Below are positions 1-9,610 of a stretch of DNA of 12,954 bases, in pieces. Both the position numbers and the translations under genes were made by a program. This DNA comes from a virus (lineage: Duplodnaviria; Heunggongvirae; Uroviricota; Caudoviricetes). Each line of letters starts with the position of its first letter. Within the stretch, counting starts at the first letter, position 1. Location: the IMG/VR virus record IMGVR_UViG_2778261154_000015, positions 1 to 12,954 of that record. The stretch is one strand, 5' to 3'. Under the pieces are notes generated by a model, which saw only the letters and a program-made list of their open reading frames with translations, was not told where the DNA came from and did not search any database.

Positions 1-1119
1 TTAAATAACCAACTTAACCCATTCCTGACCTCGAGTATCGTTATAGCGATCGGTGGTTGCCTGGACTTTATGTCCTAGTAATGTTTTTGTATCGATACCC
101 TGTGCACGGTACAGCCGTTCTGATAGAGAGCGTTGTTCATGAAATGTTGGCGGAGTTTTTCCTGCTGGTGGAATTATCCCAGCCAGATCCCGTGCTTTGG
201 CAAAGTAGTCGCTCAGGTTGTCTTTACTCATCGGCTTCGGTTGTTTCTGGTGCCGACTATGGATTAGATATGGACTTAATATTCTGTCTCGGCACCCATC
301 AATAACTTCTTTTAACGTTATCCCAATGGCATCACAGCGTAGTGTAAGCGGTAACGCCAGACGCATTCCGGTTTTTCCCTGGGTGATATGCAAGTGTTCG
401 TTCCACACATCTGAAAAACGCATGTGGCAAATGTCATCACGGCGCTGACCAGTAACAATCGCAAGAAGCATTGCGTTACGGATAAAGTGTTTTTCAGGCG
501 TTGCATTGTAAATTTTTTGCCAGTCTTCCATGGTGAGCCTGGCTCTGGTTACTTTAGGGATCGGTTTACGGGTAGCCTCCGGAGGATTCCATCCAGGAGG
601 AACTTCCCCTGCATGCTGTGCTTCTTTATAAATATCAACCCATAATCCACGATTTACTCTCGCTGTGCTGACCATGTCTTTATCCAGCCACTCATCCAGT
701 ATTAATGCAAAGTCTCTTACTTCCAGTTCTTTCAATGGGTGGTTTCCCAGACGGGAAACCAGGTATGCAGCCATTCGAGTTTTTTCTTTGTGAGTTGTAG
801 CTGCAATATCTCCATTTTTCAGTCGCGTGTCCTGTATTTTCAGATATCGATCAACCCATGCCTTTAATCTGATACCCCGACGTTTTGTTGCTGACGGACT
901 TTCATCAATTTTGCGCATGAAATATTCAGCTTCTGCTGCAGCTATTCGCTGATTGGCTGTGGAAGCGATTTTTTCTGCCTTACCTTTGTCTGTTCCGAGT
1001 CCGTGAAATTTTCCAGTCACAGGATTTTTATACTGGTAGTAAACTCTGCCAGTTCTGCGATCAAACTTTTCGTAAAGACCGGCTACGTCAGTGCTGTTTT
1101 TTCGTGGCCTCGGTGACAT
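1..1119 (-). CDS. int: Tyrosine recombinase / phage integrase (lambda Int family)
   Basis: 372-aa ORF whose stop (TAA) is at window positions 1-3 on the minus strand. The C-terminal tail TFHEQRSLSERLY...LLGHKVQATTDRYNDTRGQEW closely resembles the catalytic H-x-x-R...Y tail of lambda Int as I recall it. Its start is overlapped by the upstream xis-like ORF, as in lambda. Confidence 0.93.
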   Translation of the reverse strand: MSPRPRKNSTDVAGLYEKFDRRTGRVYYQYKNPVTGKFHGLGTDKGKAEKIASTANQRIAAAEAEYFMRKIDESPSATKRRGIRLKAWVDRYLKIQDTRLKNGDIAATTHKEKTRMAAYLVSRLGNHPLKELEVRDFALILDEWLDKDMVSTARVNRGLWVDIYKEAQHAGEVPPGWNPPEATRKPIPKVTRARLTMEDWQKIYNATPEKHFIRNAMLLAIVTGQRRDDICHMRFSDVWNEHLHITQGKTGMRLALPLTLRCDAIGITLKEVIDGCRDRILSPYLIHSRHQKQPKPMSKDNLSDYFAKARDLAGIIPPAGKTPPTFHEQRSLSERLYRAQGIDTKTLLGHKVQATTDRYNDTRGQEWVKLVI

Positions 1120-1357
1120 GAGTTAAAATCTCCTTCAGTGCATCATCATCGCCAGTATGAATTTCCGGCGCAATTCCCGTTTCACCAGGCCCAACAAATA
1201 CTGCTCGGCGATCTATCAGCCAACGCCCACGAATTTTTTGTGGCCTTGGAACGATGTATCCTAGTTTTCCGTATTTCACCAGGGTAGTGTTTGTTATTGG
1301 GAGACTGAACCGTTTTGGTTTCCACTCGTCGAGCGTTATCAGGTACTGTTCGCTCAT
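1088..1357 (-). CDS. xis: Excisionase (Xis-like small DNA-binding protein)
   Basis: Small ORF directly upstream of and overlapping int by about 30 nt. N-terminal YLITLDEW resembles lambda Xis YLTLQEW. ATG at 1357 is preceded by GGAG at about 8 nt; an in-frame GTG at 1366 is an alternative start. Confidence 0.75.
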   Translation of the reverse strand: MSEQYLITLDEWKPKRFSLPITNTTLVKYGKLGYIVPRPQKIRGRWLIDRRAVFVGPGETGIAPEIHTGDDDALKEILTHVTEATKKQH

Positions 1358-1418
1358 GGCTATCACTCCGGAACGCGCCAGTTGCAGAATATCAACGACA
1401 ACTGGCGACGGTTGAACA

Positions 1419-3860
1419 TTAAAAATCAGCCTGACTCGGGATCAGTTTTTGCCAGATAACTGAAACGTATTTTGCCTGGTAACGGGCGTCATCAAGTGCA
1501 TTATGGCGCTCACCTTCGAATGGAATAGCCGTTCTGGCATCGAAGTCTATGGCTTTCCCCAGCTCAACGATTGTGCGTACATCGCGATCGTTGTAGTAAC
1601 GCCACGGGCAGGGGATCCCCTGCCGTTCGTATGAACGGCGCAAAATCGTGTTGTCGAAGTTGGCTCCATTTCCCCAGACCTGAACAAAAAATTCACCGGA
1701 GTTTTCGTCGATAAATTCCCGCAATTGTAACAGTGCATCATCTAACGGGATTTCATCGGTCATAATGGCAGATTGCGCTTCGCGTGATTGTTTAAGCCAC
1801 CATTTAATGGTGTCCCGATCAATGACTCCGCCAGCAGTTTCCAGATCGATAGTCTTACTAAATTCCGGTCCCATATCTCCGGTTTGCGGATCGAAAAATA
1901 TTGCACCTATTGAGATAATCGGGGCATCGGGATTTTTTCCCATGGTTTCAAGGTCGATCATCAGATGAATCCCCGCTCTGCTGGTGGATGTGAGATTATG
2001 ATGACCGTTCGCCTTAATTAAGGGATCTGACGCCTCGCCAGTTTCACTATCGCTGGCATGATGCTGATTGCCGCCAGTGTTCTCCTTGTGCTGATGCGCA
2101 GTGCCTTCCATTTCCTCCGGATCATTTTCCTGAACTTCAGGCTGATTCTCTCCATCGAATATTTCCTGGTATGTTGCGTCACCCATCACCGCACCACAAT
2201 CAGGGCAGTTGCCGCCACCGCTCTGACCGCAGGCGGTGCAGATCTTTTCCGGTTCCTGTTGCACTACTGGTTCAGGTTGTTTCGTTTCTGGCTCGTTTTG
2301 TTGTGTATTTGGGCTGTTTTGTTCCGCTTTCTGGTCGTTCTGTTCCGTTTCTTGCTGGTTCTGGTTCACAGAATCGCGGGTCTGGATCCCCTTAACCCAT
2401 TTCGGATCATTAGGGTCGCTAATCCCCTCAACAAATTCACCACGCGATACAGCAAGTAACTTATCGGCGTCAGGCTGGCTGATATTGGCTGCCTGCATAA
2501 TTTTGTTTACTTCGTCAGCGGTGACTTTTACTTGGTTAGCGGAACTCACCTGCGACTGAGCATCCAGCGACTGCGCGTTCTGGCCATGTTCAGTTGTATC
2601 CGGTTCCATTGTTTCAGTTGTTGCCTGTTCACCTGCCATTGCGTCAGATGGTTGTGGTTTTTCTTCTTCTGTTTCACGCTCAGTAACCACCTCGCGGTTA
2701 ATTTCTTCCAGGATATCTTTTTCCGGCGTATGCCGGGCAGCTGTGAGAGTTTCCTTGCTGGGGTTCTCGTGATCAGTTTCCGTCAAATAGGCGTTGATAT
2801 ACCCCTGAAGGCGTCCCGGGTAGTGATAAAATTCAGGGTGTGCGCTTCGGATAAGTGCAAAAATAGCGGCGCGGGAATAGTCCAGAATACCCGGGGTTGC
2901 ACGAAGTGCTGCGGACCATTCTTTGAACGGACTTTCTTTGTTCAGAACTACTTCTTTTGCGCGACGATAAACGCTGCCCGGAATTTCATAAATATTAAAA
3001 TCCATCGGAAGTGTGGCTGCTGCAATCTCCACATCCAGTGTGTCGAGGGTGTGTACTAAATTCGGATTGCGATCGGTTTTGTTCCCACCGCCAGCATTAG
3101 CACCGGAAGCCGTGCGGGTGATGCGTGAAACACGATTTCCTTTCATCCACTCTTTTGTCAGCAGACCCCGATCAGTGTAGTCAGCGTCCAGGTATGCTTC
3201 GAAAAAAGCAGTTATTAGTCCCTGGTCTGAATTACCAGGATTAGGGAAAACTTTGTCAGTGTCACGAACCAGTTTGTGGAGGTCGCGAATCTCCAGCGAG
3301 TCGAGCAGACTGGTTTTATGCGAAATAGCCAGGGCAGTAACAGCCGGTAGTTCTTCAGCCTGTGCAATGTGTAATGCCTGGAGTTCGTCGCGTGAAACGT
3401 GCGTTACTGGTTTTTCGCTGCCGTGTTGAGCAAGCCAACGAATGGGCAGTTCCTGACCGGAGACAGGCAGAAGCATGCTCTCCTCAATCTCAGTCATGTC
3501 TTCGCCGTTGATGTTGGTATTGTCAGTGCTGGCTGGTTTGTCCTGAACAGAGGGGGAAGGGCCGATAAATGTCATTGTGATGCCATCTTTCCCGCCTTTT
3601 TCATAGCGGTTGCAGAATTCAGTATCAAACACGCCTTCTGGCGGAAGGTCGTCAACAACGGGCAAATTGACGCGGACGGGTTTTTTAAAGTCGTCTTCAT
3701 CATAATCGTTGTCATCCATTGCGGTAATGCAGCGGGAGATTGCAACAGATAATTTTTTTGCTGTAGTCCAGTAAAAACCACCTTTAATTCCCAGGCGTTT
3801 TCTTACTTTGTCATTTTTTGCTTCGCAATATAGTGCAAATTCTTCTTTATCAGTGCTCAT
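1419..3860 (-). CDS. Large multidomain protein with C-terminal DnaQ-like (DEDDh) 3'-5' exonuclease domain; probable full-length counterpart of ydfE, often annotated exodeoxyribonuclease VIII-like
   Basis: 813-aa ORF. The C-terminal region carries Exo I (IDLETMG), Exo II (VWGNGANFDNTI) and Exo III (HNALDDARYQAKY) motifs. Upstream of it are a Cys-x2-Cys...Cys-x2-Cys zinc ribbon (CTACGQSGGGNCPDCG) and a long Q/N/E/T-rich low-complexity linker. It sits between xis and ydfD, where the ydfE-type gene lies in Qin-type prophages. Confidence 0.8.
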   Translation of the reverse strand: MSTDKEEFALYCEAKNDKVRKRLGIKGGFYWTTAKKLSVAISRCITAMDDNDYDEDDFKKPVRVNLPVVDDLPPEGVFDTEFCNRYEKGGKDGITMTFIGPSPSVQDKPASTDNTNINGEDMTEIEESMLLPVSGQELPIRWLAQHGSEKPVTHVSRDELQALHIAQAEELPAVTALAISHKTSLLDSLEIRDLHKLVRDTDKVFPNPGNSDQGLITAFFEAYLDADYTDRGLLTKEWMKGNRVSRITRTASGANAGGGNKTDRNPNLVHTLDTLDVEIAAATLPMDFNIYEIPGSVYRRAKEVVLNKESPFKEWSAALRATPGILDYSRAAIFALIRSAHPEFYHYPGRLQGYINAYLTETDHENPSKETLTAARHTPEKDILEEINREVVTERETEEEKPQPSDAMAGEQATTETMEPDTTEHGQNAQSLDAQSQVSSANQVKVTADEVNKIMQAANISQPDADKLLAVSRGEFVEGISDPNDPKWVKGIQTRDSVNQNQQETEQNDQKAEQNSPNTQQNEPETKQPEPVVQQEPEKICTACGQSGGGNCPDCGAVMGDATYQEIFDGENQPEVQENDPEEMEGTAHQHKENTGGNQHHASDSETGEASDPLIKANGHHNLTSTSRAGIHLMIDLETMGKNPDAPIISIGAIFFDPQTGDMGPEFSKTIDLETAGGVIDRDTIKWWLKQSREAQSAIMTDEIPLDDALLQLREFIDENSGEFFVQVWGNGANFDNTILRRSYERQGIPCPWRYYNDRDVRTIVELGKAIDFDARTAIPFEGERHNALDDARYQAKYVSVIWQKLIPSQADF

Positions 3861-3953
3861 TATTGATAAACCTCATCACAGATTTAAGGGTGAACAAATC
3901 TCTGCCATTGCTGACATATAAGAATGAAACTGGATATTTATTACGGTGCTGTT

Positions 3954-4142
3954 TTAAAATCCTGCCGGGATTTCGTTATCCTGGTGAATAACTTTATCGA
4001 CCGGATAACAGTTGCCTGGGATTTTCTGTTCGGTTGCTGCGGCCATACATTCCTGCATTGTTCTGTGAACACTGACTGCAATATCAACTGGCTCTCCGGA
4101 AACAAGAAAAACCGTCAGAATAAGTGCAAATACTGGATTCAT
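3954..4142 (-). CDS. ydfD: YdfD-like small protein with N-terminal hydrophobic segment (reported lysis protein of the dicB operon)
   Basis: 62-aa reading frame from the internal ATG (MNPVFALILTVFLVSG...). Its start overlaps the dicB stop in an ATGA arrangement. Length and position match ydfD of the K-12 dicB operon as I recall it. Confidence 0.6.
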   Translation of the reverse strand: MNPVFALILTVFLVSGEPVDIAVSVHRTMQECMAAATEQKIPGNCYPVDKVIHQDNEIPAGF

Positions 4143-4327
4143 TGTGCACATCCTTTTGGCATCAGACGTAAACGGGCCAGCATTGAAACAATGCATACTT
4201 TATTTAATAACTCCCGTTCGTGTTTTCTTTTGTTAATGGCCTCTTCAGTGAATACAGGATTACTGATAGTGACACCAATTTCAAAACAACCTTCAGACGT
4301 ATTAACGTTTGGTAATAACGTTTTCAT
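4139..4327 (-). CDS. dicB: Cell division inhibitor DicB
   Basis: 62-aa frame MKTLLPNVNTSEGCFEIGVTISNPVFTEEAINKRKHERELLNKVCIVSMLARLRLMPKGCAQ, near-identical to the K-12 DicB sequence as I recall it. It lies downstream of DicF on the same strand. Confidence 0.9.
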   Translation of the reverse strand: MKTLLPNVNTSEGCFEIGVTISNPVFTEEAINKRKHERELLNKVCIVSMLARLRLMPKGCAQ

Positions 4328-4496
4328 TATCGCGCCCTCAACAATGAGTTTTGTGATGCGGTGCCTGGTGCTTCCAGGTGACGTTAACCAGTTAACAATT
4401 AACGCCGGATACAGAGAATCCACCCATAACACTGTTTTCGGTTTTAACTGTTCCGCGTGCGCTCAGCCGCATTCACCACATCACAAAATTCACTTT

Positions 4497-4554
4497 AAAA
4501 AGGGCGGCAGAGCAGTCACGGAGTAAAACTGATACCGCCAAACGTCACCAGAAA
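4497..4554 (-). ncRNA. dicF: DicF small regulatory RNA (Hfq-dependent antisense sRNA targeting ftsZ and other mRNAs) with its intrinsic terminator
   Basis: The minus-strand sequence reads UUUCUGGUGACGUUUGGCGGUAUCAGUUUUACUCCGUGACUGCUCUGCCGCCCUUUUU, matching the DicF sequence as I recall it. It ends in a GC-rich hairpin (GGCGG...CCGCC) followed by a U run, and lies about 170 nt upstream of dicB. Confidence 0.85.
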
Positions 4555-4887
4555 ATTGATAACAGAGGGCGTTGCAGCGGGGTTGTCACTTAAGCGTATG
4601 GTCAACCTGACAACCCGGTGTCCTCAACGGGGAAGGAATAACCCCGCCATACTTACCGCCGCGCCATTTCGCGGATTGCCACAACCGGAAGCGCACGGTC
4701 GACGAAAATTTAACGACAGACCATTTATGAACTAACAGCCTCGCCGTGCGCTTTCGCGTTATGCCCTGACTTTTCAGGGACATATCCTTTCAGTAAACTG
4801 TCAGTGCCGGATGCTCACCCGTGTCCGGCGCACGCACTCCACCTCACCCGTGGAGAACTCCTTAATTACCAACCCTCAGGAGGGTGA

Positions 4888-5121
4888 ATGTTAAAATCAA
4901 CTCTTATTGCTAAATGCCTTTATCAAAATCGCATGGTAAGCAGCATTTCAATAGGCGAGTCTGCAGTTAAAAGTATTTTCGAAGAGTACTTTCCCGGGCA
5001 TGATTTTAATAAATGGAATACCAAATTACCGCCAGCAGTTTCAACGCGTATTCTGAAAGCAACTGAAAGAGCAAGTACAATTCGCGTTAACTATTTCATT
5101 AAAGATTTGTGGGATCTTTGA
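4888..5121 (+). CDS. Hypothetical protein (77 aa), unrecognised; part of an AT-rich insert
   Basis: ATG preceded by a strong Shine-Dalgarno (cAGGAGGgtgaATG). AT-rich coding sequence on the opposite strand to the surrounding operon. Its 3' end overlaps the 3' end of the convergent 135-aa ORF by 23 nt. No family recognised, so coding status is uncertain. Confidence 0.45.
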   Translation: MLKSTLIAKCLYQNRMVSSISIGESAVKSIFEEYFPGHDFNKWNTKLPPAVSTRILKATERASTIRVNYFIKDLWDL

Positions 5122-5506
5122 TATCCACAGAGCCTAAAGTATGTGCATATGGATGTGCTATTGTGCGCCCTCGCAGATTTGCATCATTTTCTAAATTCAC
5201 TGAACGAAACAGGGCATCAACAAGGCTCTGTACAATGCAAAGGCAATCGAAGACTGTCGCTGTTTCTGTTTTGATTGATGAAAGAACATGGCCATTCACG
5301 CAAACAGAAATTACCCGTTCATTAACATCGCTTTCCTGCTTTTGATTATCAGAACCATATAGCCCAGAAAAAGCATTGCGCACATTACGAACCATATTAT
5401 CGATGGTTTCTTTTTTGGTGTATGCCGGGTCAATTTTCACCAGACTATCACCGAGAGTCGTTGCAGCAATTGTCTGGATTTCTTTTGGTAAATCTTTAAA
5501 TTCCAT
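5099..5506 (-). CDS. Hypothetical protein (135 aa), unrecognised; extra gene within the dicB operon
   Basis: ATG at 5506 preceded by GAGG at about 6 nt, and only 22 nt downstream of the ydfC stop on the same strand. No hydrophobic segments and no motif I recognise. Visibly AT-richer than neighbouring genes. Confidence 0.6.
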   Translation of the reverse strand: MEFKDLPKEIQTIAATTLGDSLVKIDPAYTKKETIDNMVRNVRNAFSGLYGSDNQKQESDVNERVISVCVNGHVLSSIKTETATVFDCLCIVQSLVDALFRSVNLENDANLRGRTIAHPYAHTLGSVDIKDPTNL

Positions 5507-5528
5507 TATTAGCCTCGTTGGTTAACCA

Positions 5529-5747
5529 TTAACGTGGGTATGTAATCATTCTGGCAATGCTTAATGCCGCTGCTTTTTCCAGATTGGTGATATCCTGCTC
5601 CAGAGCGGACAGATTTTCAGCCTGCTTAGCCCTGGCTTCATTGGCCCATTTCAGGTCCTGCGCAGCCTTAATTTTCTGGTGCATCCACTCATAAAGTTCA
5701 TCATCGGTATAGTCTGGCGCGATGATGACGGGTTCTCGTTTCTGCAT
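5529..5747 (-). CDS. ydfC: YdfC-like protein (72 aa)
   Basis: 72-aa frame from the internal ATG (MQKREPVIIAPDYTDDELYEWMHQ...) preceded by GAGGA. Length and position (third ORF of the dicB operon, after the 51- and 42-aa ORFs) match ydfC. The upstream part of the longer ORF-track frame is basic and low-complexity, and is probably not translated. Confidence 0.7.
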   Translation of the reverse strand: MQKREPVIIAPDYTDDELYEWMHQKIKAAQDLKWANEARAKQAENLSALEQDITNLEKAAALSIARMITYPR

Positions 5748-5775
5748 ACTGATTCCTCGCGTGCTGTTTCGCTTA

Positions 5776-5904
5776 TCAGCCGTTAGATTTTGCCGAACTG
5801 GAAAGCGCCTGTTTAAATTCGCTGAAGCTGAGAGCTTCTTCGCCTTCGGCAAGGCCTTCGAAGTATTCTTCGTAAGCCTTTTCCATGATTGTGTCGAAAT
5901 CCAT
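5776..5904 (-). CDS. ydfB: YdfB-like small acidic protein (42 aa)
   Basis: Not in the ORF track (below its size cutoff). By manual translation: MDFDTIMEKAYEEYFEGLAEGEEALSFSEFKQALSSSAKSNG. Its ATG lies 1 nt after the ydfA stop (TGAtATG) with an AGGTGA-type SD inside ydfA. The 42-aa length matches ydfB. Confidence 0.6.
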   Translation of the reverse strand: MDFDTIMEKAYEEYFEGLAEGEEALSFSEFKQALSSSAKSNG

Positions 5905-5905
5905 A

Positions 5906-6061
5906 TCACTCACCTGAGTTTCTTTCCAGCCAGCGACGGGCACCATTTTCGGTTTTAAACGTTTTGCTTTTGGTATACGTCATGGCGGTAAACGTTCCAT
6001 CCTGGTTAGGGAACACGCCGCACACCAGAGATTCGTTGTTGCCAAGATCGATAGTATCCAT
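5906..6061 (-). CDS. ydfA: YdfA-like small protein (51 aa)
   Basis: 51-aa frame from the internal ATG (MDTIDLGNNESLVCGVFPNQDGTFTAMTYTKSKTFKTENGARRWLERNSGE) preceded by GAGG at 6 nt. It is the first ORF downstream of the putative dicB-operon promoter, and its length matches ydfA. Confidence 0.65.
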   Translation of the reverse strand: MDTIDLGNNESLVCGVFPNQDGTFTAMTYTKSKTFKTENGARRWLERNSGE

Positions 6062-6129
6062 GCTGACCTCATTTCCCCTTAACGCCGGGTGGCGGAACTG
6101 TTTGCTGAGAGCACCGTGCGGTGTCTTGA

Positions 6130-6175
6130 TGGATGTTAATTTAGTTTTCTCATGGTAATTGGTCAAGTATTTTTG
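6130..6175 (-). promoter_or_regulatory. Candidate sigma70 promoter for the dicB operon (dicBp-like)
   Basis: On the minus strand: TTGACC (plus coordinates 6161-6166), a 17-nt spacer, then TAAATT (6138-6143). This lies about 80 nt upstream of ydfA, in the 190-bp gap between dicA and ydfA. Promoter call made by eye only. Confidence 0.4.
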
Positions 6176-6252
6176 ATAAGAAATCTCAATATTTAATGCA
6201 AAACAAAGCCAATACATTGAAATGTAAGGCTTTAAAATTTGTGAAGGGGGGG

Positions 6253-6660
6253 TTATTGATGTTTGTTACGTTTACGAGCTTCTAGTAGCTCGGTGAATAG
6301 GCGATTAAAATTCTCAACGCGGGCACGGAGTTCGCTGATTTGTGCTTGCTGCTCTGATTTTGGAAGTGCGCGATACAATCGCAACATCTCCAACTCATCT
6401 TCCGATAGGTCTAAGGCGCTGTTGAGTGCAACTGGGGGATCTGGTGTTTTATCCTCGTCACCAAACAGTATCCAGGTTGGTGAACATTGCAATACCTCAG
6501 CTAGGCGATGCAAATTTTGCCCGCGCGGGGCTGTATGGTCGCTTTCCCATAGTGAAATTGATGAGCCAGATACGCCAGCAGCTTTGCTTAAATCGTTTTG
6601 ACTTAAACCAACCTGTTTGCGTCTTTCTCTAATTCGTTGACCTAAAGTTTTCTCGTTCAT
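6253..6660 (-). CDS. dicA: HTH XRE-family repressor, DicA-like (P22 C2 / lambda cI functional analogue)
   Basis: 135-aa ORF with an N-terminal HTH (LSQNDLSKAAGVSGSSISLWE) and the conserved LQCSPTWILFGDEDK segment. Same length as K-12 DicA. Divergent from a Cro-like gene, with a short operator-bearing intergenic region between them. Confidence 0.85.
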   Translation of the reverse strand: MNEKTLGQRIRERRKQVGLSQNDLSKAAGVSGSSISLWESDHTAPRGQNLHRLAEVLQCSPTWILFGDEDKTPDPPVALNSALDLSEDELEMLRLYRALPKSEQQAQISELRARVENFNRLFTELLEARKRNKHQ

Positions 6661-6737
6661 ATTTAGATATCTTAATAACTCTTGACTTGAGATTCCTTGA
6701 ATGATTACTATTAAGAAAACTCAACTTTGGAGGGGCG
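6661..6737. promoter_or_regulatory. Divergent dicA/dicC promoter-operator region
   Basis: 77-bp gap between divergent repressor and Cro-like genes. Plus strand has TTGACT (6682-6687), an 18-nt spacer, TACTAT (6706-6711), then GGAGG before the dicC ATG. An inverted pair CTTAATA (6671-6677) / TATTAAG (6709-6715) flanks the promoter. Confidence 0.5.
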
Positions 6738-6965
6738 ATGTTTAAATCAGACGTAATTAATTTTTATGGGACGAAAGCCAAAGTAGCGAAAGCTGCTGGA
6801 GTTGATCCATCTGCTGTTTCTCAATGGGGGAAACTGGTTCCTGAAGGTCGCGCGATGCGCCTGCAAGAGGCATCCGGCGGGGAACTTCAGTACGACCCCA
6901 AAGTTTATGACGAATATCGTAAGGCAAAACGACCTGGGAAGGTGATTCATGAAAATCAGGCATGA
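6738..6965 (+). CDS. dicC: Cro-like regulator DicC
   Basis: 75-aa ORF divergent from dicA with a GGAGG SD. The LVPEGRAMRLQEASGGELQYDPKVY segment matches DicC/YdaS-type Cro-like proteins as I recall them. Confidence 0.8.
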   Translation: MFKSDVINFYGTKAKVAKAAGVDPSAVSQWGKLVPEGRAMRLQEASGGELQYDPKVYDEYRKAKRPGKVIHENQA

Positions 6966-7371
6966 GCACATCGAATCAGTGTTGTTAGCCCTGGCATCTG
7001 AAAAAGGGCAGGCATGGGTTGCCAGTGCAATTACTGAAGAATATCTGCGCCAGGGGGGCGGCGAATTGCCCCTGGTACCAGGCAAGGACTGGAACAATCA
7101 GCAGAATATCTATCACCGTTGGTTGAAAGGTGAAACGAAAGCGCAAAGGGAAAAAATTCAGAAGCTGATCCCAGCAATTCTGGCAATCCTTCCGCGCGAG
7201 CTGCGTCACCGACTCTGCATCTTCGATACCCTGGAACGCCGTGCATTACTGGCGGCGCAGGAAGCGTTGAGTACGGCAATTGATGCGCATGATGACGCAG
7301 TCCAGGCCGTTTACCGTAAAGCGCATTTCAGCGGTGGTGGGTCGTCCGACGATTCTGTCGTTGTGCATTGA
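6949..7371 (+). CDS. YdaT-family protein (CII-like regulatory protein, historically annotated toxin YdaT)
   Basis: 140-aa ORF overlapping the dicC 3' end by 17 nt. The N-terminus MKIRHEHIESVLLALASEKGQAWV resembles Rac YdaT as I recall it. It occupies the cII position after the cro-like gene. Confidence 0.7.
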   Translation: MKIRHEHIESVLLALASEKGQAWVASAITEEYLRQGGGELPLVPGKDWNNQQNIYHRWLKGETKAQREKIQKLIPAILAILPRELRHRLCIFDTLERRALLAAQEALSTAIDAHDDAVQAVYRKAHFSGGGSSDDSVVVH

Positions 7372-7461: not shown

Positions 7462-8217
7462 ATGAGCATGAAACTAATGGCAAAAGCAATGGAAATTAAA
7501 GTGGGTAATCCATTGCGTAAGCTGGTTCTGATTAAGCTGGCTGATAATGCCAGCGATCAGGGCGAGTGCTGGCCCAGCTACCAGTATATCGCTGACCAGT
7601 GCGAGATTAGCAAGCGTTCTGTGATTAATCATATTGCGGCGCTTTGTGAGTCCGGGCTGGTAAAAAAAATCACCCGGAAAGGTGAAAAAGGTAATACAAG
7701 TAATATCTATCTCCTTCATCTGGATGGTGCAGAAAATTTACCGGGGAATAGTGCAAATAATTCGCTACATTGTGCATCAGATGCATCGGGTAGCGCAGGA
7801 GTTGCACCTGTTGCCAGTGCAGGAGTTGCACCCAGAACCAGTCACTCTTTTGAACCAGTCAATGAACCTGATGTTGGTGGATCTGCTGACGCAGATCCAC
7901 AGGTCAGTCATCGCGCAAAAAACAAAATCGACTGGCAGAGGGTTCTGGACAGCTATCACGAAATCCTGTCTGAAATGCCATCAGTGAAAATTCTGACGGA
8001 TACCAGGAAAAAAAATCTGCGGACGTTCTGGCAGAAATTCGGTTTTGACCAGCAGCGATGGGAGTCCTATCTGCGATACGTTGCTGAGAACTGTCGCTGG
8101 ATGCTGGAAGATCGTCCCAATGGCAGCGGTGGGTTCTGGAAGCGTAAAAACCTGGATTACCTGATCACCGAACGGTGCTATGTCGCTGTCAAAGAGGCGC
8201 GGGCAAATGACAGATAA
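7462..8217 (+). CDS. Phage replication initiation protein (O-like, N-terminal winged-helix HTH_36-type domain)
   Basis: 251-aa ORF. N-terminal LRKLVLIKLADNASDQGECWPSYQYIADQCEISKRSVINHIAALCESGLVKK is typical of phage replication-initiator HTH domains. It lies immediately upstream of, and is translationally coupled to, the DnaB-like helicase gene. It contains an internal direct DNA repeat. Confidence 0.8.
   Translation: MSMKLMAKAMEIKVGNPLRKLVLIKLADNASDQGECWPSYQYIADQCEISKRSVINHIAALCESGLVKKITRKGEKGNTSNIYLLHLDGAENLPGNSANNSLHCASDASGSAGVAPVASAGVAPRTSHSFEPVNEPDVGGSADADPQVSHRAKNKIDWQRVLDSYHEILSEMPSVKILTDTRKKNLRTFWQKFGFDQQRWESYLRYVAENCRWMLEDRPNGSGGFWKRKNLDYLITERCYVAVKEARANDR
7795..7832. repeat. Two direct copies of GCAGGAGTTGCACC, 24 bp apart, inside the O-like gene linker (iteron-like)
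   Basis: Copies at 7795-7808 and 7819-7832, encoding the duplicated AGVAP peptide. The position is analogous to the lambda ori iterons within gene O. Confidence 0.5.
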
Positions 8218-9610
8218 CACCTTTCCGGTGCCATACCGGGTCGATGCCGAACAGGCAGTGCTGGGGTGCCTGATGGTAAACACCGACACTGAGCGTGCGG
8301 GGCTGGTGTATTCGATGCTGAAACCGGAGTCGTTTTACGTTGCGGCGCACAGGGTTATTTTCCGTGAAATTCGCGGACTTTTCCGCGCCGGAAAGCCTAC
8401 GGACCTGCTCAGCCTTGCGAACGTGATCGAGGCGAAAAAACTGGATGCTGAGACTGGTGGCTTTGCGTACCTTGCTGAAATCAGCAGGAGTGCCACGCTA
8501 TCGGCGATGGTTCACTACGCCGGGATTGTGCGGGAAAAATCCATCCTGCGGTACGCGGTGGAAAAATTACATGCGTGCATCGGGATCATGAATCAGCCGA
8601 CAGACACGAGTGCGACAGAACGACTTGGCGCAGTTCAACAGGTCATTGGCACGATGGCAGAGTATGCCAGAACAGGAAAAACAGGCGGTCTGCGCCCGGT
8701 AAGTGATGTGGTTAACGACTGGATTGATGATCTTGAGCGTCGCTTTTCCAGCCCGGAGAACGCAGCGGGTCTGACGCTGGGGATTAGCTCTCTGGATCGG
8801 CTTATGGCCCCCAAACATGTGCTACGTGGTTCGCTGGTAGTGATTGGTGCAAGGCCGAAAATGGGTAAAAGCGCCTCGCTGAACAGGATTGTGACGCATT
8901 TTGCTCTGAATCATCGTCTGCCCACACTGGTATTCACCCTGGAAATGACAGATCGCAGCCTGGTTGAGCGCATGGTTGCGCAGGAGGCGAGGGTAAATTC
9001 TGAAATTTTTTATGTCGGTGCCAGTGATGACTCGGATATGGCGCGGGCGATGGCGAAAGCCGCAGAACTGGCAGAATCAAACCTGATGATTGACAGCACA
9101 CCAGGGGTAACGCTGGCCCATGTGATCGCTGAATGCCGGAAGGTTAAGCGTCAGCGTGGTGTTGTCGGCCTTGTGGCGATCGATTACCTGACGCTGATGA
9201 AGGCGGAAGCCGCGGAGCGTCGTGATATTGCTTTCGGGGATATCACAACGGGCTTAAAAAATCTCGCTAAAGAGCTGGACTGCGTGGTTTTACTTCTGAC
9301 GCAACTTAACCGAAAACTCGAGGACAGGGCAGATAAACGCCCCACACCAAGCGACAGTCGCGACACCGGGCAGATTGAACAGGATTGCGATGTGTGGATT
9401 GGGTTGTACCGGGATGCTGTCTACAACCGTAACGCAGACTCTCAGCTTATGGAGCTGATTCTCCGTCTGAACAGGGAGGGAGCAACAGGAACAGCATACG
9501 CCCTGATGGATAACGGTTCAGTGACTGATGTCAGCGCAGAGGATGCTGCCAGACGTCTGAGACTTGGTGGTCCGGCACGTAAACCCTACGCACAGACGGA
9601 GGATTTCTGA
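8207..9610 (+). CDS. Replicative DNA helicase, DnaB family (phage-encoded)
   Basis: DnaB N-terminal-domain-like segment (DAEQAVLGCLM), Walker A GARPKMGKS, Walker B-like LVAIDYL, and LLLTQLNR. The ATG at 8207 overlaps the upstream stop and is preceded by AGAGG; the ORF-track start at 8180 is an alternative. Confidence 0.9.
   Translation: MTDNTFPVPYRVDAEQAVLGCLMVNTDTERAGLVYSMLKPESFYVAAHRVIFREIRGLFRAGKPTDLLSLANVIEAKKLDAETGGFAYLAEISRSATLSAMVHYAGIVREKSILRYAVEKLHACIGIMNQPTDTSATERLGAVQQVIGTMAEYARTGKTGGLRPVSDVVNDWIDDLERRFSSPENAAGLTLGISSLDRLMAPKHVLRGSLVVIGARPKMGKSASLNRIVTHFALNHRLPTLVFTLEMTDRSLVERMVAQEARVNSEIFYVGASDDSDMARAMAKAAELAESNLMIDSTPGVTLAHVIAECRKVKRQRGVVGLVAIDYLTLMKAEAAERRDIAFGDITTGLKNLAKELDCVVLLLTQLNRKLEDRADKRPTPSDSRDTGQIEQDCDVWIGLYRDAVYNRNADSQLMELILRLNREGATGTAYALMDNGSVTDVSAEDAARRLRLGGPARKPYAQTEDF

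Follow-up and report, generated by a model that had tools for sequence, protein, structure and literature searches.

The window analyzed here, a stretch of 12,954 nt, carries the dicBF operon on the minus strand, and the segment from the stop codon of ydfD to the start codon of ydfA corresponds exactly to positions 3954-6061. The initial annotation had described this segment as an intact operon with the order ydfA-ydfB-ydfC-DicF-dicB-ydfD, in which the small ORFs have the lengths of their K-12 counterparts. The gene-by-gene comparison with K-12 Qin confirmed both claims, as each product was 89-100% identical and YdfA, YdfB, YdfC, and DicB had the same lengths as in K-12, whereas YdfD was one residue shorter than the K-12 protein (63 amino acids). 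The alignment with b1570-b1576 showed that the small ORFs are neither disrupted nor strongly diverged. The dicB gene is located 3' of dicF on the same strand, and its stop codon overlaps the start codon of ydfD (ATGA) as in K-12. All six products of the annotated list were found, but the list had overlooked two genes, ORF135 and the convergent ORF77, that lie between ydfC and dicF (Table 1). Judged by its sequence, the locus represents the E. coli prophage dicBF cell-division-inhibitor operon of the Qin/dicBF kind in an intact and ordinary form.

Table 1. Positions of the features predicted or identified in the window.
Feature	Position	Strand	Size and supporting evidence
Tyrosine integrase, complete	1-1119	-	372 aa; Pfam Arm-DNA-bind_1 and Phage_integrase
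Excisionase-like gene, start codon uncertain	1088-1366	-	Pfam Exc, 23.0 bits (equal to the cut-off)
Exonuclease, full-length form of K-12 pseudogene ydfE	1419-3860	-	813 aa; Pfam Exonuc_VIII (N-terminal part) and Rv2179c-like 3'-5' exonuclease
ydfD	3954-4142	-	62 aa, DUF1482; PF07358, 86 bits; ~56/63 identical to K-12
dicB	4139-4327	-	62 aa; 59/62 identical to K-12; PF05358, 132 bits; NCBIfam NF049927, 131 bits (cut-off 100)
dicF terminator hairpin and T-run (T-run 4497-4501)	within 4497-4554	-	alignment to K-12
dicF sRNA	4502-4554	-	53/53 identical to K-12 b1574; Rfam RF00039, 76.7 bits, E=7e-16
Untranslated dicF leader (precursor region)	4555-4874	-	305/320 identical to K-12
ORF77	4888-5121	+	convergent with the operon; phrog_10348, E=1.1e-47; identical to WP_000920491.1
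ORF135	5099-5506	- (operon strand)	absent from K-12; phrog_1363, E=2.4e-46
ydfC	5529-5747	-	72 aa; 70/72 identical to K-12; phrog_1744
ydfB	5776-5904	-	42 aa; 42/42 identical to K-12; phrog_2061
ydfA	5906-6061	-	51 aa, DUF1391; 50/51 identical to K-12; PF07151, E=2.6e-29
Predicted operon promoter, dicBp equivalent	6138-6189 including operator	-	consensus scan
DicA-family repressor	6253-6660	-	135 aa, HTH_3; NCBIfam DicA, 238 bits (cut-off 101)
Three predicted operator palindromes, TTRAG-N4-CTYAA	6662-6675, 6687-6700, 6711-6724	unstranded	pattern search
dicC-like cro-type regulator	6738-6965	+	75 aa; NCBIfam DicC NF007282, 157 bits (cut-off 130); Pfam P22_Cro

The codon changes in ydfA, ydfB, ydfC, and dicB with respect to K-12 were 19 synonymous and 6 non-synonymous, and this excess points to purifying selection. 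Such a pattern bears on the idea that the locus is a silent remnant, in which the small ORFs have been kept merely through the youth of the sequence and have no function in the source strain. K-12 Qin is indeed cryptic and its operon is silent in laboratory conditions (PMC10448788), but the synonymous excess, the intact state of all ORFs, the preserved promoter, ribosome-binding sites and coupled dicB/ydfD overlap, and the 100% conservation of DicF make a remnant very improbable.

The presence of DicF together with its terminator, as originally noted, was verified by an Rfam score above the gathering score of 48 and by the exact comparison with K-12, in which the 35 nt directly 3' of dicF, T-run included, also matched fully. 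The dicF leader, for which cleavage sites of RNase III and RNase E are known from K-12 (PMC10448788), folded slightly better than shuffled sequences (z=-2.35). The Rfam scan of the related loci L004 and L010 detected no DicF above the threshold; absence of the sRNA from these loci was rejected, as the alignment revealed variant or seed-deleted copies, and the copy of L010, an O157 locus, has a different hairpin top that places it below the Rfam threshold.

The uninterrupted ydfC-leader-dicF arrangement of K-12 is absent here, since an insert of 634 bp (4875-5508) separates ydfC from the dicF leader and falls between positions 4062 and 4063 of the K-12 locus. The product of ORF135 is 134/135 identical to WP_000394520.1. 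Its N-domain (aa 1-55) is constant, and its C-domain (aa 58-135) is homologous to stand-alone proteins of 77-107 aa in other genera. ORF77 encodes a small basic helical protein, and its 3' end overlaps that of ORF135 by 23 nt. Homologues of ORF77 with 55-72% identity occur in many Enterobacterales, and the search of its profile against 1.8 billion cluster representatives for informative domain fusions retrieved 163 relatives, nearly all of which were stand-alone proteins of 74-80 aa. In six Enterobacterales genera, ORF77 is paired with the C-domain of ORF135 and the 23-nt overlap is identical, and outside E. coli ORF77 and its partner are located directly after the repressor gene. A 201-aa E. 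coli form has the C-domain without ORF77, and one distant ORF77 homologue stands alone.

Neither ORF135 nor ORF77 matched an entry in Pfam, NCBIfam, or PADLOC, so that no match to a catalogued defence or toxin-antitoxin family was obtained; profile searches against PDB sequences also gave no match. The AlphaFold model of ORF77 had a pLDDT of 96.4, but the fold search of the PDB found no match to it, including among known toxin, antitoxin, and DNA-binding folds, whereas the model of ORF135, built with 22 sequences, was unusable (pLDDT 48). Both PHROGs families, 1363 and 10348, are annotated as 'unknown function', and the literature search on the RefSeq accessions of the two proteins returned no papers.

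The 135-aa protein was considered as a truncated form of the 201-aa protein, but this was rejected because the two forms diverge exactly where the convergent gene begins, which makes a module swap likelier than decay. The 23-nt overlap was likewise rejected as a bidirectional terminator hairpin, as Klebsiella and Dickeya do not preserve its inverted repeat. The insert slot in E. coli is a variable hotspot that differs between prophages. We tentatively propose, as a reading of low probability, that two genes at this place in the operon form a polymorphic locus, of which the insert is one allele. A constant N-domain and a swappable C-domain would be accompanied by a small matching gene that runs in the other direction and is translated from a fixed ribosome-binding site within the dicF leader. 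ORF77, which is basic, and the acidic C-domain of ORF135 would then form a cognate pair, maybe a toxin/antidote or superinfection-exclusion module, and antisense transcription would perhaps gate dicF and dicB.

The convergent ORF77 could hinder read-through to dicF and dicB, and the operon may not act as a K-12-like single unit. In the strong version of this idea, the insert functionally splits the operon. Transcripts would be stopped or destabilized before dicF and dicB, either by the convergent transcription from ORF77 or by an RNA duplex over the 23-nt overlap, so that the toxic genes are expressed less than in K-12 or from another promoter. ORF77, which is encoded opposite to the operon, is a real and conserved gene preceded by a strong ribosome-binding site (GGAGG). 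As no promoter was found within the insert, its transcription has to start in the shared leader, and RegulonDB promoters upstream of dicF and of dicB have been mentioned (PMC11430063). However, a convincing promoter for ORF77 was not found, as the best candidate (TTTTCA-17-TAAACT) agreed at 8/12 positions and was not conserved in L004, and the ORF77 upstream regions of four genera gave no convincing alignment. Moreover, no terminator was predicted from ORF135 to dicF, an internal promoter was not found in K-12 (PMC10448788), and the layout persists alongside an intact dicB in 646 of 5,426 complete genomes. A split operon is considered unlikely on this evidence.

Directly upstream of the operon lies a divergent pair of regulatory genes of the DicA/DicC type. 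The DicA-family repressor is 74/137 identical (~54%) to K-12 DicA and 135/135 identical to WP_001003379.1 of loci L002 and L003, and the domain search detected no peptidase domain in it. The dicC-like regulator, whose gene is divergent from the repressor gene, is 47/76 identical (62%) to K-12 DicC. The predicted operon promoter is sigma-70-like, with a -35 sequence TTGACC (6166-6161), a 17-nt spacer, and a -10 sequence TAAATT (6143-6138), and it is placed as dicBp is in K-12, with an identical ACTTGACC context at -35. The layout is also that of K-12 dicBp, where Oc-like sites flank ACTTGACC.

Three of the predicted operators fall in the 77 bp that separate the repressor gene from dicC, a further copy (6176-6189) lies upstream of the predicted operon promoter, and a weaker operator-like copy, ATGAGAAAACTAAA (6153-6140), overlaps its -10 sequence. 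The window contains four matches to TTRAG-N4-CTYAA, all flanking the repressor gene. However, the motif comes from the very intergenic regions in which it was then counted, and the raw count is not significant by itself, as at least four matches were obtained in 17 of 200 shuffles. The proven operator of K-12 DicA, Oc, is TTGTTAGTCATAACTAACAA (PMC3441716); the Oc-type site TGTTAG-N6-CTAACA had no match in the window, as opposed to three in K-12, and TTRAG-N4-CTYAA occupies the positions equivalent to those Oc-type sites. Loci that carry the identical repressor allele retain the motif, and it is absent from the K-12 and O157 loci, where the repressor differs; L002 and L003 are close relatives, and their agreement is not independent evidence. 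The repressor and its predicted operators look like an immunity type different from that of K-12. The claim that the operon is under DicA control held insofar as a DicA-family repressor adjoins the operon, but the repressor is a different allele and K-12 Oc is absent, so that control of the DicA type is suggested here by a different repeated palindrome and not by K-12 data. It would be unsafe to extend the K-12 results on DicA, Oc, and the Rem antirepressor to the present immunity type.

The 813-aa exonuclease gene is the next gene after ydfD on the same strand and is annotated as '3'-5' exonuclease' in L002 and L003, in which an excisionase is also annotated at the position equivalent to the excisionase-like gene. 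The replication module comprises an HTH_36 initiator and a DnaB-family helicase. The Pfam domain matches, with that of Exc at the cut-off, supported the earlier statement that integrase, excisionase, and the replication module are retained here, unlike in K-12 Qin; this applies to the 13 kb of the prophage in view.

The region is very probably an intact early-left operon of the PL type from a lambdoid prophage of E. coli, with repressor-controlled working, a different immunity allele, and the ORF135/ORF77 cassette. In the lysogen, the DicA-family repressor would keep the operon promoter (~6138-6166) off, as palindromes flank or overlap the promoter and recur in the spacer between the repressor and cro-type genes. 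Since the repressor has no peptidase domain, relief would probably occur via an antirepressor, as with Rem in Qin. Once repression is lifted, a single transcript would cover ydfA-ydfB-ydfC-ORF135-leader-dicF, and would end at the DicF terminator or read through to dicB-ydfD and probably also to the exonuclease, xis, and int. DicB would then bind MinC and stop Z-ring formation, and would also block ManYZ-dependent phage DNA entry, while YdfD would act as a lysis protein. The transcription, DicB, and YdfD steps are transferred by analogy from K-12 experiments on the basis of 95-100% sequence identity; the mechanisms of dicBp, DicA, Rem, and RNases III and E were described in K-12 (PMC10448788), as were the action of DicB with MinC and the ManYZ exclusion (PMC6832061). 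The functions named by the initial annotation, which are inhibition via MinC/ZipA and ftsZ mRNA and the ManYZ exclusion, are likewise carried over from K-12 (PMC6832061, PMC5069750, PMC10448788), the only strain for which filamentation and ManYZ-dependent phage resistance upon derepression are known (PMC6832061, PMC10448788).

The same gene context allows another view of what the operon is for, namely that its real job is in the early lytic program of the phage, where host division is blocked in a Kil-like manner before recombination and excision take place. The operon would then not serve the host by conditional phage exclusion and growth arrest, and the ManYZ exclusion would be a side effect. 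The operon is in the place of lambda PL, from the repressor to exonuclease-xis-int, and the same operon is present in phages mEp460, HannyBb, and Tritos, and in the PPompW prophages. The early region looks complete here, whereas that of Qin is decayed, and exclusion by DicB has been demonstrated under artificial induction only (PMC6832061). On the other hand, phage and host roles are compatible, spontaneous derepression in a K-12 subpopulation and induction by stress have been reported (PMC10448788), and the retention of the operon by many decayed prophages speaks for a host benefit (PMC5069750). We rate this lytic role at slightly under an even chance.

About 88% of complete E. coli genomes matched a part of the region, and none of the complete genomes contained more than 61% of the window in one place. 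The dicBF operon is found in many prophages, and the targets of DicF have been described (PMC5069750). The combination of the operon with int and xis is not unusual, as it occurs in O157:H7 prophages and in phages that form plaques or are inducible. The findings as a whole are already known, and the present copy is a routine variant; the operon, its regulators, and its occurrence in complete and defective E. coli prophages have been published, so the main finding adds little. The insert alone is mildly interesting. Published work regards the ydfC-dicF interval as a 'long untranslated region', and ~12% of complete E. coli genomes carry a conserved uncharacterized gene pair there. DicF has reported roles in virulence regulation in O157:H7, and an antisense cassette gene could alter how pathogenic strains of this kind express DicF and DicB.

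Among known systems, the Qin dicBF locus of K-12 shares the gene order, strand, promoter architecture, and divergent DicA/DicC-type regulator pair with the present locus. Its YdfA, YdfB, YdfC, and DicB are 95-100% identical, with DicF and the dicB/ydfD overlap being the same, but it is without the ORF135/ORF77 insert, and its ydfE, xis, and int are pseudogenes, whereas these are intact here and accompanied by replication genes. The ompW-integrated prophages of EHEC O157:H7 and its relatives (PPompW; L010, L002, and L003) resemble the window further, as they contain ydfC, the 135-aa gene, the convergent 77-aa gene, the dicF region, dicB, ydfD, exonuclease, xis, and int, and ORF77 is identical at 77/77 positions in PPompW-type loci. 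The repressor allele of L002 and L003 is also identical to the present one; in L010 the repressor is 72/135 identical, ydfA and ydfB are replaced, and the first 30 aa of the 135-aa protein are different. The position of the ORF77 pair outside E. coli is that of rexAB in lambda; rexAB and sieB are accessory genes of lambdoid immunity regions that are expressed in the lysogen. The PL operon of phage lambda is similarly a repressor-controlled early-left operon with a division inhibitor that leads into recombination, xis, and int, and DicA/DicC have been likened to CI/Cro (PMC10448788). The two differ in that lambda Kil has no sequence relationship to DicB, the N antiterminator gene at the start of the lambda operon has no counterpart here, and the present repressor is without a RecA-cleavable peptidase domain.

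The initial annotation had described an intact dicB operon (ydfA-ydfB-ydfC-DicF-dicB-ydfD) under DicA control at 3954-6061. These coordinates proved accurate, the reading strand being minus, and alignment with the Qin-type locus of Escherichia coli K-12 MG1655 (L001) confirmed that the operon is intact. All five small ORFs were undisrupted (42/42 to about 56/63 residues identical to K-12), each with an ATG start and a recognisable ribosome-binding site, and the dicB stop and ydfD start overlapped as ATGA, as in K-12. Family matches were obtained for DUF1391, DicB (Pfam and NCBIfam), and DUF1482. Over ydfA, ydfB, ydfC, and dicB, 19 synonymous and 6 non-synonymous codon differences from K-12 were counted, an excess that indicates purifying selection and disfavours a decaying remnant. 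DicF was detected on the minus strand (4502-4553) with 76.7 bits against an Rfam gathering score of 48. Direct comparison with L001 showed 53/53 identical bases (4502-4554), and the next 35 bases on the 3' side, terminator T-run included, were also identical, so that both DicF and its terminator are present as had been claimed.

Features of the operon, its insert, and the neighbouring genes
Feature	Position	Strand	Length	Remark
813-aa protein	1419-3860	minus	813 aa	N-terminal part of exonuclease VIII (RecE-like) and Rv2179c-like 3'-5' exonuclease
ydfD	3954-4142	minus	62 aa (K-12: 63)	about 56/63 identical to K-12
dicB	4139-4327	minus	62 aa	59/62 identical to K-12
ORF77	4888-5121	plus	77 aa	opposite to operon strand
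ORF135	5099-5506	minus	135 aa	operon strand
ydfC	5529-5747	minus	72 aa	70/72 identical to K-12
ydfB	5776-5904	minus	42 aa	42/42 identical to K-12
ydfA	5906-6061	minus	51 aa	50/51 identical to K-12
Predicted sigma-70-like promoter	-35 TTGACC 6166-6161; -10 TAAATT 6143-6138
Predicted operator 4	6176-6189			TTRAG-N4-CTYAA; just upstream of promoter
Repressor gene	6253-6660			DicA subfamily, 238 bits (NCBIfam)
Predicted operators 1-3	6662-6675, 6687-6700, 6711-6724			TTRAG-N4-CTYAA; 77-bp spacer between repressor gene and dicC
cro-like gene	6738-6965			47/76 identical to K-12 DicC
YdaT-family protein	6949-7371	plus	140 aa
Replication module	7462-9610	plus	251 and 476 aa	HTH_36/DnaD_N-like initiator overlapping DnaB-family helicase

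DicF varied among related prophages. The copy in the O157:H7 prophage next to ompW (L010, about 5860-5920) kept the 5' seed with a different hairpin top, and that of a further prophage locus (L004, about 6110-6170) lacked the seed, i.e. the ftsZ-pairing part. Both fell below the Rfam gathering score, so Rfam-based counts of DicF will miss such copies.

All the genes originally named in the operon were present, but an insert had been overlooked. BLAST against K-12 returned two blocks, window 6131-5509 with K-12 locus 3438-4062 (95.7% identity) and window 4874-3869 with 4063-5071 (94.5%), which leaves 634 window bases (4875-5508) without a K-12 counterpart. The insert lies about 20 nt past the ydfC stop and runs from 3 nt ahead of the ORF135 ATG to the ribosome-binding site of ORF77; the two genes converge and share 23 nt at their 3' ends. 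Both are annotated in RefSeq as hypothetical proteins (ORF77 identical to WP_000920491.1, ORF135 134/135 identical to WP_000394520.1), and a literature search on these accessions found no papers. The insert occurred in 646/5,426 complete E. coli genomes, including the O157:H7 prophage next to ompW, with the order ydfC, 135-aa gene, 77-aa gene, dicB, ydfD, exonuclease, xis, and int; the layout has thus already been sequenced and annotated, though uncharacterised.

The 320-nt dicF leader with its processing sites was 305/320 identical to K-12. Should the 190-nt species arise as it does in K-12, an RNase III site would be expected some 137 nt upstream of DicF's 5' end, and the insert lies upstream of this expected site. 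Several GC-rich hairpins were seen on both strands of the leader at 4740-4875 (e.g. GCCGGA...TCCGGC about 4808-4831), folding was somewhat better than for shuffled sequence (z=-2.35), and Serratia, which lacks DicF, has a similar GCCGG...CCGGCGC hairpin upstream of its ORF77 homologue.

E. coli prophages have a variable hotspot between ydfC (or ydfA) and the dicF leader (window 4875-5508; loci L004-L006, L019, L021). Its alleles combine a constant N-domain of ~55 aa with differing C-termini, each with its own small convergent gene of 77 aa, 63 aa (phrog_2605), 69 aa (phrog_4274), or 80 aa (phrog_10133) that uses a common ribosome-binding site in the shared leader; in K-12 the whole unit is cleanly deleted. 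A second hotspot, between the repressor gene and ydfA, was empty in the window; other prophages that have the operon (L005 3694-4172, L006 3685-4156, L019 821-1488) carry inserted toxin-antitoxin pairs there (PaaA2/ParE; HigB and an HTH partner).

ORF77 represents a genuine gene. Its homologues, constant in length and 55-72% identical, occur in Klebsiella, Serratia, Dickeya, Xenorhabdus, Yersinia, Morganella, and Salmonella, and the profile search returned 163 cluster representatives, nearly all stand-alone and 74-80 aa long. Its AlphaFold model comprised five helices (pLDDT 96.4), with no fold match in the PDB; a search for an ORF77 promoter gave no convincing candidate. ORF135 consists of the N-terminal domain (about 55 aa), elsewhere fused to other C-termini in forms of 124, 179, 186, 201, and 208-212 aa, and a C-terminal domain (residues 58-135). 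In Serratia prophages, a 79-aa gene whose product is 36-37% identical to residues 58-135 (E about 1e-15) converges with the ORF77 homologue, again with a 23-nt overlap. Comparison of window 4888-5335 with prophage loci L007-L009, L011-L012, and L014-L017 revealed the pair with this unchanging overlap in six genera (Escherichia, Serratia, Klebsiella, Dickeya, Proteus, Photorhabdus). In the inspectable prophage loci (Serratia, Klebsiella, Dickeya) the pair is found a short way downstream of the repressor gene, roughly where lambda carries rexAB, with another gene intervening in one Serratia locus. The opposite charges (ORF77 basic, pI 9.5; C-domain acidic, pI 5.1) and joint inheritance suggest a cognate pair, e.g. 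a toxin/antidote or exclusion module. However, neither protein matched known defence or toxin-antitoxin families, the 201-aa form retains the C-domain without ORF77, and a distant ORF77 homologue in Psychrosphaera is unpaired; a functional two-gene module seems rather unlikely.

The claim of DicA control held in part: a DicA-subfamily gene adjoins the operon, but this allele shares only 74/137 residues with K-12 DicA. The experimentally supported K-12 operator Oc, TTGTTAGTCATAACTAACAA (PMC3441716), of which two related copies flank the -35 and -10 of the K-12 promoter dicBp, had no counterpart in the window. Instead, a TTRAG-N4-CTYAA quasi-palindrome occurred in four copies at <=1 mismatch, all adjoining the repressor gene, although the motif was derived from the same regions in which it was counted and the raw count is not significant (>=4 matches in 17/200 shuffles). 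A weaker copy overlaps the -10 of the predicted operon promoter, which shares the -35 context ACTTGACC with dicBp; K-12 homology resumes at 6131, directly downstream. The sites were kept in L002 and L003, E. coli loci with an identical repressor protein, whose agreement is not independent because they are closely related, and were absent from the K-12 and O157 loci, whose repressor alleles differ. These results can be read as a different immunity type in control of the same operon, with the repressor predicted to bind these operators. No peptidase domain was found in the repressor, so derepression probably proceeds via an antirepressor, as with Rem on DicA in Qin (PMC10448788); no antirepressor gene was visible in the window. 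The YdaT-family gene starts inside the dicC-like 3' end (17-nt overlap), where lambda has cII.

The initial annotation was also right that integrase, excisionase, and a replication module are kept. Downstream on the operon strand follow the 813-aa protein, an intact full-length counterpart of the K-12 pseudogene ydfE, an excisionase-like gene exactly at the Pfam Exc cut-off (23.0 bits), and a complete integrase with Arm-binding and catalytic domains. Beyond the immunity region lie the YdaT-like protein, the HTH_36 replication initiator, the helicase, and DUF1627, DUF977, and DUF551 proteins. The close relatives L002, L003, and L010 instead carry DnaT-like/lambda-P type replication genes, and this swap is the main cause of no genome matching the whole window. 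Complete E. coli genomes covered at most 61% of it in one place, which marks a new mosaic of familiar modules.

Position and content mark this as a lambdoid prophage's PL-type early-left operon. Its promoter would be kept off in the lysogen by the DicA-family repressor. Derepression would yield a single transcript of ydfA, ydfB, ydfC, ORF135, leader, and dicF, part stopping at the DicF terminator and part continuing into dicB and ydfD. DicF, freed by the RNases III and E, would repress ftsZ translation, DicB would recruit MinC and thereby block division and ManYZ-dependent phage DNA entry, and YdfD would cause lysis. The steps from derepression onward, established for K-12 (PMC10448788, PMC5069750, PMC6832061; YdfD lysis, PMC11430063), are carried over because of the sequence identity. 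Whether the operon serves mainly the phage lytic programme, with lambda Kil as the analogue, or host defence is a question of emphasis.

In summary, the earlier interpretation was largely right but incomplete; the insert and the repressor allele had been overlooked. The conserved, uncharacterised convergent pair in the supposedly "untranslated" ydfC-dicF interval is the sole part that might repay experiments. That a more complete element carries the operon is not exceptional: sequenced phages such as mEp460, HannyBb, Tritos, and those of the PPompW group have it too, and the same was already noted for EHEC prophages (PMC5069750). The object is already known, being a routine, intact dicBF operon of the EHEC/PPompW type that has another immunity allele.
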